A stretch of DNA of 24,000 nucleotides from an uncultured Eubacteriales bacterium (GTDB lineage Bacteria; Bacillota; Clostridia; TANB77; UBA1234), in NCBI GenBank assembly GCA_964400015.1, contig CAYNRR010000015.1:9184-33183 (forward strand), written 5' to 3'. The notes beneath the pieces are model-generated. The model searched no databases. It saw only the letters and a program-made list of their open reading frames with translations, and had not been told where the DNA came from. Shown piece after piece: positions 4,097 to 16,456 of the stretch (position 1 is the first letter of the stretch; the number at the start of each line of letters is the position of its first letter). The translations under genes were made by a program, and so were the position numbers.

Positions 4097-4580
4097 AGTG
4101 CAAAATGAGGAGGTTCAAGAAGTTTCAGTTGCAAGTCTACAAGAAGAACTTGAAAAACTAAAAGCTGAAAACGAAAAGTATTATGATCATTTGCAAAGAA
4201 CAGCTGCAGAATTTGATAATTACAAAAAAAGAGTGTCAAAGGAAAAAGAAAAAATTTATAATTTGGCAGTAGGGGATGTAATTACAAAATTCATTTCCGT
4301 ATTAGACAACTTAGAAAAAGCAACGTTAGCAGAATCAACAGATGAAAAACTTAAAGAAGGCGTTGAATTGATATACAAACAAATGGCTGATTTGTTTACA
4401 GGATTAAATGTTGAAAAAATAGCAACTTTAAAAGAAGAATTTAATCCAGATTTGCATGATGCAGTAATGCATGTTGAAGATAAAGAGTATGGCGAACAAG
4501 AAGTAATCGAAGAACTAAGAAGTGGTTACAAAATGGGCGATAGAGTGTTAAGACATGCAATGGTTAAAGTCGCAAACTAA
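4068..4580 (+). CDS. grpE: nucleotide exchange factor GrpE
   Basis: ORF 4065..4580. The ATG at 4068 lies 7 nt after AAGGAGGA. It has a coiled-coil N-terminus and a GrpE-like C-terminus (GYKMGDRVLRHAMVKV), and its operon position fits. Confidence 0.9.
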   Translation: MTNKTEQNNEVQNEEVQEVSVASLQEELEKLKAENEKYYDHLQRTAAEFDNYKKRVSKEKEKIYNLAVGDVITKFISVLDNLEKATLAESTDEKLKEGVELIYKQMADLFTGLNVEKIATLKEEFNPDLHDAVMHVEDKEYGEQEVIEELRSGYKMGDRVLRHAMVKVAN

Positions 4581-4593
4581 TAAAAATATATAG

Positions 4594-6477
<1,884 letters not shown>

Positions 6478-6562: not shown

Positions 6563-7699
6563 ATGGCTGAAACAAAACGCGATTATTATGAAGTCCTTGG
6601 TGTTGAGAAGTCAGCATCAGATGATGAAATAAAAAAAGCTTTTAGAAAACTTGCAAAGAAATATCATCCAGATGCTAATCCTGATAACAAAGAAGAAGCA
6701 GAAAGAAAATTTAAAGAAGTAAATGAAGCGTATGAAGTATTATCTGATCAAACTAAAAGACGTAACTATGATACATTTGGCCATAATGCCGGTGCAAATG
6801 GCTATAGCAGTGACTTTAGTGGATTTAGTGGATTCAACGGATTTCATTCTGCATATGGTAATGGATTCGAGGGTGATATAGACTTAAACGATATCTTTTC
6901 AGCTTTTTTTGGTGGAAGTTCAAGAAGAACTAATAAAAATGGTCCAGTAAAAGGAAGAGATATAAAAGCAAGAGTAGAGATTACATTTGAAGAAGCAGCT
7001 TTTGGAACTATAAAAGAAGTTACAATAAATAGAGATGAACAATGTACTACTTGTAAAGGTAGTGGTTGCAAACCAGGTACTTCAAAAGAAACTTGTAAAG
7101 TATGTGGTGGTTCGGGTCAAATTAGAGAAGGCTCAATGTTTATGCAAAGAATAAGAACTTGTGATCATTGTGGAGGCACAGGTGAAATTGTTTCTGAACC
7201 ATGTAGTGATTGTAAAGGAAGAGGCACAATCAGAAAACAAAGAAAAATAAAAGTATCGATCCCTGCAGGAATTGATAATGGACAAATAATTTCACTTAGT
7301 GGTGAAGGAGAACCAGGTCTAAGAGGTGGAACTTCTGGTAATTTGTATATAACTGTTTCTGTTAAAAAGCATCCTATCTTTGAAAGAAAAGGAGATAGCA
7401 TTTTTGGTAACGTGCATATTTCATTTGCACAAGCAGCTTTAGGAGCGATAATTGACGTTCCAACATTAACAGAGCCTGAAAAATACGATTTAGCAGAAGG
7501 AACACAAACAGGTTCTATCTTTACGTTAAAAGGTAAAGGAATAAAAAATGTTAACGGAAAAGGATATGGAGATTTATACTTTACTGTAATAGTAGATGTT
7601 CCTAAAAAGTTAAATAATACTCAAAGGGAAATTTTAAAACAATTTGCAGAGGCGAGTGGCGAAAGTTTTGAAACAGGTAGGAGAAGAAAATTTTTCTAA
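6563..7699 (+). CDS. dnaJ: co-chaperone DnaJ
   Basis: ORF 6542..7699. The ATG at 6563 follows AAAGGAGAA. It has a J domain with HPD ([10 protein letters not shown]), a G/F-rich linker and four CxxCxGxG motifs ([32 protein letters not shown]). Confidence 0.97.
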
Positions 7700-10740: not shown

Positions 10741-13449
10741 ATGGGATTTTTAAAAAAATTATTTCCTTCATACAGTGAAAGGGAAATCAAAAAAATAAAG
10801 CATTACGTTGATGAAATCAATGCACTAGAGCCAACAATGGAAGCTTTATCAGATAAAGAACTACGTGCAAAAACAGATGAATTTAAGAAAAGATTACAAG
10901 AGGGCGAAACATTAAATGATATATTAGTAGAGGCATACGCAACTGTTCGTGAAGCTTCAAAAAGAGTATATGGAAAGAGACCATTTGATGTTCAGCTTAT
11001 GGGTGCAATAATATTACATCAAGGCAGAATTTCAGAAATGAAAACAGGTGAAGGAAAAACATTAACAGCTTCAATCGCCTTATATTTAAATGCACTAGAA
11101 GGAAAAGGTGCTCACCTAGTTACGGTAAATGACTATCTTGCTAAATCGCAAGGTGAAGAAATGGGTAAATTGTATAATTTCTTAGGACTATCTGTAGGTA
11201 TAATAATAAATGGATTAGAACCAAGAGAAAGAAAAGCTGCATATGCTGCTGATATTACTTATGGAACAAATAATGAATATGGATTTGACTACTTAAGAGA
11301 TAATATGGCTATATATAAAGAAAACATGGTTCAAAGAGAATTGAATTATGCGATTGTCGATGAAATAGATAGTATCCTAATCGATGAAGCACGTACACCA
11401 CTTATTATTTCTGGACCATCAGATAAAGCCAATGACTTATATAAAACAGCAGATGCATTTGTTAAAAAGCTAAAATTTAAAGTAATCACTAAAGATGATA
11501 CTAAGCAAGAAGAATCTGAAGAAGATAAAGAATACGACGCAATCGTAGACTTAAAAGCACGTAGAACTACTTTAACTTCAACAGGTACATCAAAAGCTGA
11601 AAAACATTTTGGTGTTGAAAATTTATCTGATATAGAGAATACGACTCTTTTACATCATATAACAAAAGCACTTGATGCTAATGGCATCATGAAGAGAGAC
11701 GTTGACTATATCGTAAAAGATGGCGAAGTACTAATAGTAGACGAACATACAGGAAGAATCATGTATGGTAGAAGATATAGTGATGGACTACACCAAGCTA
11801 TTGAAGCAAAAGAAAATGTAAAAATAGAAAACGAAAATAAAACACTTGCTACAATAACATTCCAAAACTATTTCAGATTATATAATAAATTATCTGGTAT
11901 GACTGGTACAGCATTAACAGAAGAAACAGAATTTAGAGAAATATACGCATTAGATGTTGTAGAGATACCTACTAATAAGCCAATGATTAGAAAAGATCAT
12001 AACGATGTTGTATACAAAACAGAAAGAGCGAAATTAAGACATGTTATAGAAGATATCAAAGAAAGCAATCAAAAAGGACAACCTGTATTAGTTGGTACAA
12101 CAACAGTTGAAAAATCAGAATACCTTAGCGATTTATTAAAGCGTGAAGGTATTAAGCATGAAGTATTGAATGCAAAATATCATGAAAAAGAAGCTGAAAT
12201 TGTAGCACAAGCAGGTAAATTTGGAGCTGTTACAATTGCAACAAACATGGCAGGTAGAGGTACAGACATAATGCTTGGTGGTAACACAGAAGCATTAGCA
12301 AAACACGAATTAAAGAAACGTGGCTATCCAGAAGATGCTATATTAGAAGCAGTTAGCTTAAATGATACAGAAGTGCCAGAAATACTAGAAATAAGAAAAG
12401 AATACAAAGAAATATATGACAAACTAGACCAAAAAGTTCAAGAGGATAGAAAGAAAGTTATTGAAGCCGGTGGATTAAAAATCATTGGTACAGAACGTCA
12501 TGAATCTAGAAGAATAGATAACCAGCTTCGTGGACGTAGTGGACGTCAAGGTGACGTAGGTGAATCAAGATTTTATATTTCGCTAGAAGACAAGTTAATG
12601 AAACTATTTGGTGGTGACCGAATTCAAATGGTTGCTAACGCAATAAAAATGGATGAAGACATGCCACTTGAAATGGGAATGTTAACAAGTACAATAGAAA
12701 CAGCACAAAAGAATGTAGAATCAATTCACTATAGTGCAAGAAAGAACACATTACAGTACGATGATATTATGAACGACCAAAGAAAGATTATATACACAGA
12801 CAGAAGAAAAGTACTAGATGGCAAAAACATGAAATCGGATATTATGAAAATGATAAGCCAAACAATTCAAAGTGCTGTAGACTCATATTTTGGAATAGAT
12901 GTAACAACTGAAAATGAAGAAGAATTCTTAATGTACGTAAGAAATCTATTAGGAATAGAATATACATTAGATTCATCAAAAACACCAGAGGCAATAGTTG
13001 AAGACTTAACTAATAAAGCAATCGAAATATACGAAGCAAAAGAAAAAGAAATTGGTGAAGCTCAACTTAGAGAAATAGAAAGAATCATAATTTTAAGAAC
13101 AGTAGACACAAAATGGATAGATCACCTAGATGCAATGGATCAATTAAAAGAAGGGGTTAGACTAAGAGGTTATGCACAAAAAGATCCAGTAGTTGAATTT
13201 AGAATGGAAAGTTATGATGTATTTAATGAAATGACTGCAGGAATAGCAGAAACAGTAGTAAGATCAATAATGCACATACAAAAAAGAAACGAGAACATGG
13301 AGAGAGTTAACGTTATCAAAAAAATGATAACAAACATGAATGCGGCAGCAAATGCAGCATCAGAAAAAGCAAAACCAAAAGTAAATTCAAGCAAAGAAAA
13401 AGTTGGTAGAAATGATCCATGCCCATGCCGGAAGTGGAAAGAAGTATAA
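10741..13449 (+). CDS. secA: preprotein translocase ATPase SecA; the C-terminal zinc motif is cut off by a 1-nt frameshift (the intact frame would end at 13474)
   Basis: MKTGEGKTL Walker A, VDEIDSILIDEARTPLIISG, TNMAGRGTDI and LRGRSGRQGD motifs. The ORF ends ...GRNDPCPCRKWKEV*, while the +1 frame from 13430 reads GSGKKYKKCCGKDE*. Confidence 0.95.
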   Translation: MGFLKKLFPSYSEREIKKIKHYVDEINALEPTMEALSDKELRAKTDEFKKRLQEGETLNDILVEAYATVREASKRVYGKRPFDVQLMGAIILHQGRISEMKTGEGKTLTASIALYLNALEGKGAHLVTVNDYLAKSQGEEMGKLYNFLGLSVGIIINGLEPRERKAAYAADITYGTNNEYGFDYLRDNMAIYKENMVQRELNYAIVDEIDSILIDEARTPLIISGPSDKANDLYKTADAFVKKLKFKVITKDDTKQEESEEDKEYDAIVDLKARRTTLTSTGTSKAEKHFGVENLSDIENTTLLHHITKALDANGIMKRDVDYIVKDGEVLIVDEHTGRIMYGRRYSDGLHQAIEAKENVKIENENKTLATITFQNYFRLYNKLSGMTGTALTEETEFREIYALDVVEIPTNKPMIRKDHNDVVYKTERAKLRHVIEDIKESNQKGQPVLVGTTTVEKSEYLSDLLKREGIKHEVLNAKYHEKEAEIVAQAGKFGAVTIATNMAGRGTDIMLGGNTEALAKHELKKRGYPEDAILEAVSLNDTEVPEILEIRKEYKEIYDKLDQKVQEDRKKVIEAGGLKIIGTERHESRRIDNQLRGRSGRQGDVGESRFYISLEDKLMKLFGGDRIQMVANAIKMDEDMPLEMGMLTSTIETAQKNVESIHYSARKNTLQYDDIMNDQRKIIYTDRRKVLDGKNMKSDIMKMISQTIQSAVDSYFGIDVTTENEEEFLMYVRNLLGIEYTLDSSKTPEAIVEDLTNKAIEIYEAKEKEIGEAQLREIERIIILRTVDTKWIDHLDAMDQLKEGVRLRGYAQKDPVVEFRMESYDVFNEMTAGIAETVVRSIMHIQKRNENMERVNVIKKMITNMNAAANAASEKAKPKVNSSKEKVGRNDPCPCRKWKEV

Positions 13450-13482
13450 AAAGTGCTGTGGAAAAGATGAATAATATATAAT

Positions 13483-13519
13483 ATTAAAGGCTAGTATAAC
13501 ATTCTATACTAGCCTTTTT
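13483..13519 (+). repeat. direct repeat copy 1, also the secA rho-independent terminator
   Basis: ATTAAAGGCTAGTATAACATTCTATACTAGCCTTTTT. The stem is AAAGGCTAGTATA/TATACTAGCCTTT plus a T-run. It is identical to 14380-14416. Confidence 0.9.
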
Positions 13520-13709
13520 GTATTGAGAAGAAACCAACAGTTGTACTGGTGGTAAAGAAGATTTAGAGCTATGCAGAGAAACTTAATGATGCAAGTAAAA
13601 TATTCAATCAATTATATGATACATGAGAATAATAGACTAATGATTTGTTATCATATATTTTTGTGAGAGTTAATACAGACACCAGAGATAAATAATTGGA
13701 ATTCTGATA

Positions 13710-13738
13710 TTGACATATAGTCCGTATATACTTATAAT
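13710..13738 (+). promoter_or_regulatory. perfect-consensus sigma-A promoter
   Basis: TTGACA (13710-13715), a 17-nt spacer, then TATAAT (13733-13738). It lies about 60 nt upstream of the ORF at 13802. Confidence 0.65.
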
Positions 13739-13801
13739 AAGAACAAAAGTTCTGCAAATGTTTTTTATACTTAAAAAGTTTAATCAAAAGAAGGTAGTAA
13801 A

Positions 13802-14191
13802 TTGCAATATATAACAAATTTAGATAGAAAGAAGTTAGGCATATATGAGAGTAAGTTAATAACAGAAGAAGTGATTTTAACAGACGAAAGATTATACAAA
13901 CACATTCTTTTGTTTCACGAAGAAGAGTATAAACAATTAAAGCCATATATAAAAAGTATAATTGAAGAACCAGATTACATAGTTGAAGATAATAGAAACG
14001 AAGATACTATGATATACTTAAAAGAAATTAGTGATATTGGTAAAAATGGCAGAGTTGTTGTAAAATTGGCATTAGGAAAAGATAAAACACATAATAAAAA
14101 TTCGATTATTACATTGATGAAATTGAATAAAAGAACATGGAATCAAACTATAAAAAATAGAGGAAATATAATTTGGAAGACTAGAAACTAG
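13802..14191 (+). CDS. hypothetical 129-aa protein, possibly a PBECR-type (Barnase-EndoU-ColicinE5/D-RelE fold) nuclease-like domain
   Basis: TTG start 5 nt after AGAAGGTAG. The pattern LTDERLYKHILLFHEEEY...IKSIIEEPDYIVED...NEDTMIYLK...GRVVVKL....KNSIITLMK resembles, from memory, small phage or conjugative-element PBECR nuclease-fold proteins. This is not verified by an HMM. Confidence 0.45.
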   Translation: MQYITNLDRKKLGIYESKLITEEVILTDERLYKHILLFHEEEYKQLKPYIKSIIEEPDYIVEDNRNEDTMIYLKEISDIGKNGRVVVKLALGKDKTHNKNSIITLMKLNKRTWNQTIKNRGNIIWKTRN

Positions 14192-14217
14192 ACAAAAGTG
14201 AATAAAAGATGTATAAT
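14189..14217 (+). promoter_or_regulatory. near-consensus sigma-A promoter overlapping the ORF stop codon
   Basis: TAGACA (14189-14194), a 17-nt spacer, then TGTATAAT (TATAAT at 14212-14217, extended -10). Confidence 0.55.
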
Positions 14218-14223
14218 AAAAAT

Positions 14224-14358
14224 ACACTATGAGTAGGTTATTTGAAGTGGACAATAGTGCCATCCACACACCCTAGTGGTCAAAAGAGATGCAGGATTTG
14301 GCACACCTGCCAAATAACCAGTATGATAAAAGAGCTATGATAACATAGCTCTTTTATT
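14224..14358 (+). ncRNA. candidate structured small RNA (about 130 nt), class unknown
   Basis: It has its own promoter. There is a 9-bp long-range helix (14236-14244 with 14311-14319), an inner hairpin GTGGA/TCCAC (14247-14251 with 14263-14267) and an alternative perfect 8-bp hairpin ATTTGGCA-CACC-TGCCAAAT (14296-14315). Intrinsic terminator AGAGCTATG-ATAA-CATAGCTCT plus a T-run (14328-14358). No credible ORF. Confidence 0.45.
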
Positions 14359-14379
14359 GAAGTGCAAACAATAGAAAAC

Positions 14380-14416
14380 ATTAAAGGCTAGTATAACATT
14401 CTATACTAGCCTTTTT
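14380..14416 (+). repeat. direct repeat copy 2 (terminator hairpin)
   Basis: 37/37 identical to 13483-13519. Confidence 0.9.
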
Positions 14417-14444
14417 CCTATTAAATTATATCAATAACAATTTA

Positions 14445-14726
14445 TCAAATCTCATCAGTAACACCAAGAAGAAAATCTGCTTCTTCTTGAGTTATTTGAC
14501 CTTGTTCTAAACAAGTATTTACAAATTCATTTTTCTCTTCTTCTGTTTGACCACTGGTATCCATGATCGTACGCAATTCGATTAAAGAATCTTTTTTAGT
14601 TTGAAAATGAAGCCCATCTTCGTCAAACATATAATTAGACATAAAGTGTGTTAGTACAAAATATCCAATAACTAAAAGTGCTAATACAATAATTATTATT
14701 GCTATAATAACGTTCTTTTTCTTCAT
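14445..14726 (-). CDS. small N-terminally membrane-anchored protein with an acidic C-terminal domain, unknown function
   Basis: ORF 14445..14735. The ATG at 14726 (MKKKNVIIAIIIIVLALLVIGYFVL) follows AAGAGGTGG. It has one transmembrane segment. Confidence 0.6.
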   Translation of the reverse strand: MKKKNVIIAIIIIVLALLVIGYFVLTHFMSNYMFDEDGLHFQTKKDSLIELRTIMDTSGQTEEEKNEFVNTCLEQGQITQEEADFLLGVTDEI

Positions 14727-14849: not shown

Positions 14850-14878
14850 TTGACCAAAACGATGCAAAAATATATAAT
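14850..14878 (+). promoter_or_regulatory. sigma-A promoter upstream of prfB
   Basis: TTGACC (14850-14855), a 17-nt spacer, then TATAAT (14873-14878). Confidence 0.55.
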
Positions 14879-14968
14879 TATGCAAATAGAAATAAAAATA
14901 AAAGAGCTAGTTAGACAATATTTTTATATAATATAAAAGGTATTATAAAAATGAAAGTGAGTGATAAA

Positions 14969-16073
14969 ATGTTTGAACTTGAAGAATTACTTCAACAAAT
15001 AAAAATATTTGAAAACAAATTAAAAGAATTGAGTGAATCTCTTTGACATAAAATCAAAGGAACAAGCATTAAAAGATTTAGAAACACAAACGCAAGAAAC
15101 AGAATTTTGGAATGATAGCGAAAATTCTACAAAAGTTTTACAAAAAATAAAAACATTGAAAGATAAAATCGCAGGTTTTATTTCTTTAAATAATTTAATA
15201 AATGACACAAAAGGAATAATTGAACTTAGTCTTGAAGAAAAGGAAGAATCTATGATTCAAGAAGTGAAATCATCAGTTAAGCAAATAGAAAAGCAATTAG
15301 AAAAATTAGAAATTTCAAATTTGCTTTCGGGCAAACACGATGCAAGCAATGCAATTATTACAATTCATCCAGGAGCAGGAGGAACTGAATCACAAGATTG
15401 GGCTGAAATGTTATATAGAATGTATTCAATGTGGGCAGATAAAAATGGTTATAAATTGGAAGAATTAGATTACTTAGATGGAGATGTTGCAGGAATAAAA
15501 AGCGTTACATTTAGTATTATAGGAGATAATGCATACGGTTATTTAAAAGGCGAAAGTGGAGTACATAGACTAGTTAGAATTTCTCCGTTCGATTCTGCTG
15601 GAAGAAGACATACATCATTTGCATCAGTCGAAGTAATTCCAGAAGTATCAGATGATTTAGATATTCAAATAAATCCAGAAGATTTAAAAGTAGATACATA
15701 TCGTTCAAGTGGTGCAGGAGGACAACATGTAAACAAAACAGAATCGGCAATCAGAATAACACACATCCCAACAAACATAATAGTATCTTGTCAAACACAG
15801 CGTTCACAAATTCAAAATAGAGAAAAAGCAATGAAAATGTTAATCTCAAAGTTAATGGAATTAAAAGAACTCGAGAACAAAGAAAAAATAGAAGACTTAA
15901 AAGGAGTACAAAGAGAAATCGCATGGGGAAGTCAAATACGTTCATATGTATTTTGCCCATACACACTAGTAAAAGATCATCGCACAAATCATGAAACAGG
16001 AAACGTAGAAGCTGTAATGAACGGCGAACTAAACGACTTCATCGACGCCTTCTTACGCAGGGACGTCCGTTAA
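14969..16073 (+). CDS. prfB: peptide chain release factor 2, programmed +1 frameshift: join(14969..15043,15045..16073)
   Basis: A short frame, MFELEELLQQIKIFENKLKELSESL, ends at UCU CUU UGA C (CUU 15041-15043, UGA 15044-15046). The main frame continues DIKSKEQ... It carries the SPF motif (RISPFDSAGRRHTSF) and the GGQ motif (SSGAGGQHVNK). Confidence 0.95.
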
Positions 16074-16150: not shown

Positions 16151-16214
16151 GCATTAAATACTAGATAAATGTGCAAATCTAAAGCAGTCGTTTTAAATTT
16201 TGAATTTATTTTTT

Positions 16215-16456
16215 CACAAAAAGAAAACGCATACAACAGATTATCAGTTGCACGCGCTCCCTAGTTTTTCGAGCAGTACATTAACTTGCTCCTTCCACAT
16301 TAAATTTCATACTCCTAACAACTCTCCATACACACCAAGCACTAAAGTCGCATCCTCAACGGAATCTTCTCCTCAGAGCATAGCGCTTATCACCTCAGTA
16401 TCCGTGCGGCCTCCCACATCGTTACTGGTAACAATCTATACTTCAAGTTAGAGTAT
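16215..16456 (-). ncRNA. candidate orphan non-coding RNA (about 240 nt), class unknown; G-rich, C-poor and GGA-dense
   Basis: A minus-strand promoter lies at 16463-16491. There is a minus-strand intrinsic terminator: a 10-bp hairpin (16256-16247 with 16237-16228) followed by UUUUCUUUUU (16227-16215). The segment is G+C-richer than its flanks, has no plausible ORF and has no downstream gene on that strand. Confidence 0.5.

Follow-up and report, generated by a model that had tools for sequence, protein, structure and literature searches.

The stretch analysed here, 24 kb of a contig from an uncultured Eubacteriales bacterium (the window, below), carries between secA and prfB an 860-bp islet that is enclosed by two identical 37-bp terminator hairpins. 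The islet reads as a recombinase-less remnant at an integration hotspot, and it contains a member of a known RNase family, PBECR, paired with a known orphan RNA, skipping-rope. In the following, the 37-mer ATTAAAGGCTAGTATAACATTCTATACTAGCCTTTTT is called T2 and the terminator hairpin of the skipping-rope RNA is called T1. The islet and its two borders consist of these features:

13483..13519, plus strand: T2 hairpin copy 1, serving as intrinsic terminator for secA and forming the left direct repeat (repeat search and folding).
13520..13706, no strand: 187-bp stretch from T2 to the module, with no open reading frame (ORF) and no similarity to any comparison locus.
13710..13738, plus strand: promoter of the PBECR gene, TTGACA-17-TATAAT, 12 of 12 matches, where the block shared between hosts begins on the left.
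13802..14191, plus strand: predicted RNase gene of the PBECR2/PBECR3 family, standalone, 129 amino acids (aa), TTG start codon (Pfam, homologues, alignment).
14189..14217, plus strand: promoter of the skipping-rope RNA, TAGACA-17-TATAAT, 11 of 12 matches, overlapping the PBECR stop codon.
14237..14318, plus strand: skipping-rope RNA (Rfam RF02924), full-length match to the covariance model.
14326..14357, plus strand: T1 hairpin, the skipping-rope terminator, AGCTATG-loop-CATAGCT, kept with the module in all close relatives.
14358..14379, no strand: 22-nt spacer between T1 and T2 copy 2, with a weak likeness to the secA tail that is not significant.
14380..14416, plus strand: T2 hairpin copy 2, the right direct repeat (repeat search and folding).

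The initial annotation of this DNA, made from the letters alone, had described two promoters, one ORF and one structured RNA in the 860 bp between the T2 copies, and all of them were found: the PBECR gene is the sole ORF, and the RNA, which has its own terminator, is skipping-rope. It had also seen neither an integrase nor a transposase, and indeed no recombinase gene is encoded anywhere in the 24 kb.

The 129-aa protein matched two Pfam families, PBECR2 (PF18810; 8.5e-10, 39.3 bits against a curated cut-off of 27.1) and PBECR3 (PF18812; 3.8e-8, 33.7 bits against a curated cut-off of 30), and 395 homologues were obtained. PBECR domains are phage RNases of the barnase/EndoU/colicin/RelE-like type that occur in polyvalent and MuF proteins (Iyer et al. 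2017, PMC5512222). Residues E29, R30 and H34, as well as N100, S101 and T104, are invariant in an alignment of 16 sequences reaching down to 28% identity, and H34, S101 and T104 are the probable catalytic positions, judging by the description of the family in PMC5512222. Neither a profile search against PDB nor the defence-system library PADLOC returned a match for this protein, and in PHROGs it matched only a family of unknown function.

The skipping-rope RNA was recognised over the whole length of its model (positions 1-80 of 80) with 65.4 bits, the gathering score being 36.7 (E = 6.6e-14). The motif was originally described as structurally sophisticated, with a terminator downstream and a strong association with one nearby protein, while its function was left open (Weinberg et al. 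2017, PMC5737381); a full-text literature search found no later functional work on it. The RNA of the window agrees with this description in its high full-length score, in the rho-independent terminator (T1) lying 3' of it, and in having one specific protein nearby. It differs in that this partner is here identified as PBECR2/3, including the MuF-PBECR proteins of phages, and in that the RNA occupies the position of an immunity gene.

PBECR and the skipping-rope RNA form one conserved module and are strictly paired. Every PBECR locus scanned, with proteins 28-94% identical to that of the window, has the RNA no more than about 60 nt downstream on the same strand, the PBECR gene being 5' of the RNA in all of them, and no PBECR without the RNA was found among these loci. 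Among them are phage contigs whose PBECR domain forms the C-terminus of a 495-aa Phage_min_cap2 (MuF-type) protein, and the skipping-rope promoter overlapping the PBECR stop codon is kept even in phage and distant members. In two of the comparison loci, which are labelled L001, L002 and so on, the PBECR gene is broken and the adjacent RNA is intact (66-68 bits): in L008 (2928-3239) the gene has an in-frame deletion of 27 aa, and in L009 (5001-5180) only residues 69-128 are left, beside an rve transposase gene.

MuF polymorphic toxins usually have the gene of their immunity protein directly behind the toxin domain (Jamet et al. 2017, PMC5576092), and in the PBECR loci this place is held by the skipping-rope RNA. 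The PBECR loci share with these toxins the same Pfam families, the existence of standalone and MuF-fused forms, and a presumed protective partner directly after the toxin domain; unlike in the MuF systems, the partner is an RNA and not a small protein, and the standalone form is chromosomal, beside secA. Because of the strict pairing, the retention of the RNA where PBECR is broken, and the immunity-gene position, the RNA probably neutralises the RNase, either in the manner of a type III antitoxin or as an RNA immunity factor, although it may instead serve as a substrate, cofactor or guide. The RNase would then be a toxin whose TTG start codon keeps its level low, and its neutralisation would fall to the RNA, which a strong promoter of its own would supply in excess; such a toxin-RNA module would stabilise the island carrying it. 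Type III toxin-antitoxin systems (ToxIN-like) are similar in having an endoribonuclease gene beside a structured RNA gene, and the RNA is retained where the nuclease decays (L008, L009). Their antitoxin consists of tandem RNA repeats that the toxin processes, unlike the present case, in which a single structured RNA with no tandem repeats lies downstream under its own promoter, and in which no sequence relationship to ToxN was found. By analogy, the module may work like a type III toxin-antitoxin system, being no member of the known families.

A wider proposal, put forward tentatively and with somewhat more doubt than belief, is that skipping-rope is a dedicated RNA antitoxin or immunity factor of PBECR in chromosomal as well as MuF virion toxins, and that the standalone form is a hairpin-bounded selfish cassette which travels with integrative elements targeting the secA 3' end and persists beyond them. 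Three points weigh against the account of the module as toxin and antitoxin. The RNA is present in a single copy, unlike the repeats of type III antitoxins. The toxicity of PBECR and its neutralisation by the RNA are predicted functions, read, like everything said here of what the two do, from sequence and context. Finally, the AlphaFold2 model of the PBECR protein is weak (predicted local distance difference test score 66, predicted template modelling score 0.63), too weak to confirm the BECR fold; a Foldseek search with this model against PDB gave nothing at E <= 0.001.

The module is mobile by horizontal transfer. SecA of the window shares 58% identity with that of the L001-type species, PBECR 86% at the protein level, and between the window and its same-genus relative L043 the synonymous divergence is 0.26 for PBECR vs 0.96 for secA. 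The conserved block of DNA (window 13707-14368) extends from the -35 box to T1, stops sharply at both, and is 85-91% identical to other loci, with unrelated flanks. A search for the cassette in other genomes, which the initial annotation had proposed, placed the module in at least six different contexts:

secA-module-thiE: the L001 type.
secA-…-module-NT5C-NUDIX: L043.
radical-SAM-module-thyA: L008.
Insertion sequence (IS) and tRNA: L009.
Directly after an integrase pseudogene: L054.
After an unrelated 174-aa ORF: L053.

The search of phages with the cassette gave one weak match of 123 bp to a faecal phage contig, and that of plasmids gave none. The phage contig L034 contains an IS, encoding a DDE transposase of 623 aa, immediately behind the -10 box of the skipping-rope promoter. 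On either side of this IS stands one copy of a duplication of about 143 bp (5199-5341 and 7435-7578), by which both the MuF-PBECR gene and the RNA promoter stay intact.

The site at which the islet is located is defined by the following flanking genes:

10741..13474, plus strand: secA; the 0-frame ORF stops at 13449 (902 aa, no SEC-C), and the corrected end is 13474.
14445..14726, minus strand: gene of a 93-aa protein with a hydrophobic N-terminus, no Pfam match, lineage-specific.
14970..16073, plus strand: prfB, with the classic CTT-TGA-C site of programmed +1 frameshifting at 15042-15048.

The closest relatives (SecA 88-91% identical, all metagenomic) share the gene order on both sides of the secA-prfB interval, and the homology of the window to them ends exactly at 13474 and resumes at about 14941-14966, just upstream of prfB. 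The extra DNA between the two genes, which had been taken for an insertion, is indeed lineage-specific, and the content of the interval differs among L036, L042, L043 and the window. It consists of T2, the module, T2 and the 93-aa gene in the window, of a 113-aa gene, NUDIX, MBL, acyltransferase and second NUDIX genes in L036, and of a 462-aa gene and CofD in L042. An alignment of the interval, in which an empty site with a single 37-mer was to be looked for, showed none; each close relative carries its own set of genes at this place.

The last codons of secA are an integration hotspot in related gut Clostridia, where elements accumulate as tandem arrays and degenerate. Three different tyrosine-integrase elements of the L001-type species (L002, L046, L047) lie between secA and the module, and all of them meet the chromosome at the identical point, directly before CTTGTGGTAGCCGG, inside the zinc-finger codons of secA; L001 represents their empty site. 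An integrase element is also found at the secA 3' end in L044, where the order is the module, an AT-rich arm, a secA-like core, an arm in which the motifs TTGTCCACG and CGTTGACAA are iterated, and an integrase that possesses an arm-binding domain. In L043 the 48-59-nt secA tail is present in three direct copies, and two of these bracket the PBECR-RNA unit with no integrase between them; in L054 the integrase pseudogene abuts the module. No paper describing secA as an integration target was found in a literature search, and a search of viral contigs for the secA-tail core as a phage attachment site (attP) returned only unrelated SEC-C-motif proteins.

The hotspot cargo of relatives looks like conflict-system genes. 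In L036 (7820-10632) a NUDIX gene is accompanied by that of an MBL-fold protein matching the anti-Pycsar Apyc1 family, the integrase element of L046 (850-4164) carries SLFN/AlbA_2 and HATPase_c_3 genes, and L047 carries a PemK toxin.

Cis-mobilisable elements (CIMEs) and the tandem accretion of integrative elements at gene 3' ends have been described, for example for ICESt1/ICESt3-related elements (review, PMC5704250). The islet is like a CIME in being a small integrase-less segment at the 3' end of a housekeeping gene, with direct repeats at its flanks and no integrase or transfer genes, and in that intact integrase elements occupy the same site in relatives, where they form tandem arrays (L043, L044, L002, L046, L047). 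The module of L043, lying between copies of the secA tail, resembles a decayed integrative element of this kind. The islet differs from a CIME in that its repeat is a terminator hairpin and not the secA-tail attachment (att) core, and excision or cis-mobilisation could be supposed only by analogy. The earlier suggestion of a small mobile module that has lost its recombinase stands with respect to mobility and the use of the site, and it has a concrete precedent, because relatives show both integrase elements and integrase-less, att-flanked remnants there; the accompanying idea that the 37-mer is the attachment site stays conjectural, the att core demonstrated in the relatives being the secA tail, which adjoins T2 and has no overlap with it.

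Repeats bracketing the module were found only where it adjoins secA, namely two T2 copies in the window, three copies of the secA tail in L043, and a pair of T1 hairpins in the L001 type. In the last case the secA terminator (L001 3869-3901) and the skipping-rope terminator T1 (4528-4560) share the stem and flanks, and their 7-nt loops, TTTCTCA and TGAGAAA, are reverse complements; this flipped-loop pair is the same in L002, L003 and L045-L052 and is fixed in 11 assemblies. The bracketing repeats are therefore tied to recombination at the secA site and not to the module itself.

The 3' end of secA is altered as well. In the 0-frame product of the window gene the Pfam SecA domains were found and PF02810 was not; the zinc-finger tail CPCGSGKKYKKCCGKDE, followed by the stop codon, is readable only by skipping one C near 13429-13430, the true end then being 13474. 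The SecA proteins of relatives have 908-911 aa and contain PF02810. In the window the extra C stands just before the SEC-C tail (TGC C GGA AGT…, region 13420-13474), and in the L001-type secA (L001 3809-3866; also L002, L045-L048) it is two codons further on (AGC C GGT AAG) and is fixed across many independent assemblies. Where the module is not directly after secA (L036-L042 and the native copy of L043), the secA tails are intact. Both frameshifts fall within the att core of the integrase elements, and they could be recombination scars or 3' ends supplied by the elements. Programmed frameshifting in secA was also considered and is unlikely: the extra C is at different codons in the two lineages, and no slippery motif was seen on reading.

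The perfect direct repeat reported in the initial annotation is exact. T2 occurs in exactly two copies in the window, both on the plus strand, even when up to 3 mismatches are allowed, and no 37-nt match arose by chance in the shuffled sequences (0/100). Its fold is a 13-bp stem without mismatch, closed by a 6-nt loop and with a T-run behind it (-18.5 kcal/mol, z = -5.9). Copy 1 begins 8 nt past the frame-corrected secA stop (13472-13474) and 33 nt past the 0-frame stop, 28 nt separate copy 2 from the stop codon of the convergent 93-aa gene, and the spacer has the identical orientation in both. A covariance-model match to the L20 leader on the minus strand (14373-14494), scoring 25.6 bits against a gathering score of 58.7, was dismissed as hairpin-driven.

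Among 185,579 species-representative genomes T2 was found at three unrelated sites, two of them in Colwellia, which is close to the chance expectation for perfect 12-bp-stem hairpins on a rough estimate; it had no match in the viral contigs, the phage collection or the plasmid collection searched. As far as could be tested by these scans and that of the window, T2 is not a dispersed or high-copy repeat. As had been argued before, 37 bp is too long for a transposon target-site duplication, which has 2-15 bp and is accompanied by terminal inverted repeats and a transposase; the ends of the islet carry no inverted repeats besides the hairpins themselves, and there is no transposase in the window. 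Xer-dependent pdif modules and integron cassettes are likewise small and recombinase-less, are often toxin-antitoxin pairs, and have short palindromic recombination sites as their bounds. T2 differs from such sites in showing no dif-like or attC-like features (judged by reading the sequence), its stem having no bulges, where attC sites have extrahelical bases, and no R-box sequence GTTRRRY; neither IntI nor any other integrase is encoded in the window, and the site is chromosomal, beside secA.

The duplication of T2 may be explained as a duplicated junction left by the insertion of a recombinase-less remnant element carrying the RNase-RNA module, an explanation which is given about an even chance. 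In this clade the secA-prfB interval is a recombination hotspot, where tyrosine-integrase elements enter the final secA codons, accumulate one behind the other and degenerate; a circular intermediate with the module would have recombined at the secA terminator region, by which T2 would be duplicated. The junction would be either a segment of identity between attL and attR, part of a long attP/attB segment spanning the secA tail and the terminator, or a Campbell-type crossover site, T2 being the presumed place of the crossover. The integrase and the arms would have been lost afterwards, as in a CIME.

Several observations weigh against this explanation. T2 is not the att core of the relatives, the secA tail ending 8 nt before it, and it has no similarity to the integrase arm motifs. 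The 22 nt before T2 copy 2 match the secA tail at 17 of 21 positions, a score reached by 1% of shuffles; as a remnant of the att core this segment is not significant, since 9 of 133 control secA segments (7%) score equally. An ungapped extension of the repeat by 13 nt has 9 of 13 matches (p about 0.004), which is suggestive only. Neither blastn nor tblastx detected integrase or arm remnants in the 187-bp stretch or in the region of the 93-aa gene. No empty site of the same species was found, the species being known in NCBI from a single 33,184-bp contig, and exact-protein look-ups of the 93-aa and PBECR proteins of the window retrieved no contig.

A serious rival, if a rather unlikely one, is local processing of the hairpin with no part played by site-specific recombination, foreign DNA having been captured at a break or at a switch of the replication template in the palindromic terminator. 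Only those events that kept a terminator on both sides would have survived, the left one serving secA and the right one the convergent 93-aa gene and insulation. The duplication of about 143 bp around an unrelated IS in L034, within the same module family, indicates that such outcomes occur, the flipped-loop pair of the L001 type is what would be expected from palindrome processing, and T2 has no link to integrase sites. However, there is no direct evidence for the mechanism, the sharp and perfect boundaries (37/37) are typical of crossover sites, and integrase activity is documented at the same locus in relatives.

It is improbable that T2 is itself the recombination site, with 13-bp inverted arms and a 6-nt asymmetric spacer, that its recombinase is encoded elsewhere, and that the 860-bp islet is still mobile. 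The layout is that of lox, dif and attC sites, the spacer has the same orientation in both copies as excision would need, in many contexts the module is a self-contained unit with a hairpin at its end, and the flanking hairpins of the L001 type have inverted spacers. Nevertheless, any intrinsic terminator has this architecture, T2 was found in no other module locus, and neither the sequence features of dif or attC sites, as read by eye, nor a candidate recombinase in the window could be discerned.

Still less probable is the possibility raised in the initial annotation that T2 belongs to a repetitive extragenic palindrome (REP)-like or generic terminator family, two members of which captured the cassette by recombination. 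Such a family would have many copies per genome and across relatives, whereas there are two in the 24 kb, the three sites elsewhere are near chance, and the viral, phage and plasmid collections contain none; what speaks for it is a pair of hairpins in L004 with the same 12-13-bp stem, different loops and a distance of 220 bp. These hairpins lie in a metagenome-assembled genome of an unrelated Clostridium (4594-4634 and 4816-4850, stem GGCTAGTATA…TATACTAGCC) around a possible 26-aa ORF, and their resemblance to T2 may be due to chance or to a local hairpin duplication of the same kind. An assembly artefact, a loop or chimeric join at the 37-bp repeat, is hardly credible even for a sequence known from a single contig whose close relatives are all metagenomic, as the final k-mers of common assemblers exceed the repeat in length, the secA-module order is seen independently in other species and assemblies, and both junction flanks are unique sequence.

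The 93-aa gene beyond the islet, predicted in the initial annotation as a divergent membrane-protein gene, is present on the minus strand at the position given there. Its homologues (63-69% identical; L055 and L056) have surroundings like those of integrative and conjugative elements, with a large serine recombinase, HTH_3 regulators and a TraG/VirB4-like ATPase as neighbours, and because of this location the gene is probably also a leftover of a mobile element. The terminator of these homologues is unlike T2. A promoter-like site for prfB itself was noticed at 14850-14878, and an 83-aa ORF without a Pfam match lies between prfB and polC (16200-16451), its DNA being conserved in relatives (87% identical to L036). 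The rest of the window consists of housekeeping genes (hrcA-grpE-dnaK-dnaJ-…-yicC-remA-rpoZ-secA … prfB-polC-…-hpf).

Taken alone, the 37-bp repeat is a modest curiosity, and its value is that of a flag for an RNase-RNA system. The last codons of secA emerge as an integration hotspot of gut Clostridia, with stacking and decay of elements and sometimes a frameshifted SecA tail, of which no earlier description was found. Skipping-rope, a structurally complex orphan RNA of 2017, now has a fixed partner in the PBECR RNase and, because it stands in the immunity-gene position and persists where the RNase decays, a testable hypothesis of its function. If true, this would be RNA-based immunity for an RNase domain of the polymorphic-toxin type.

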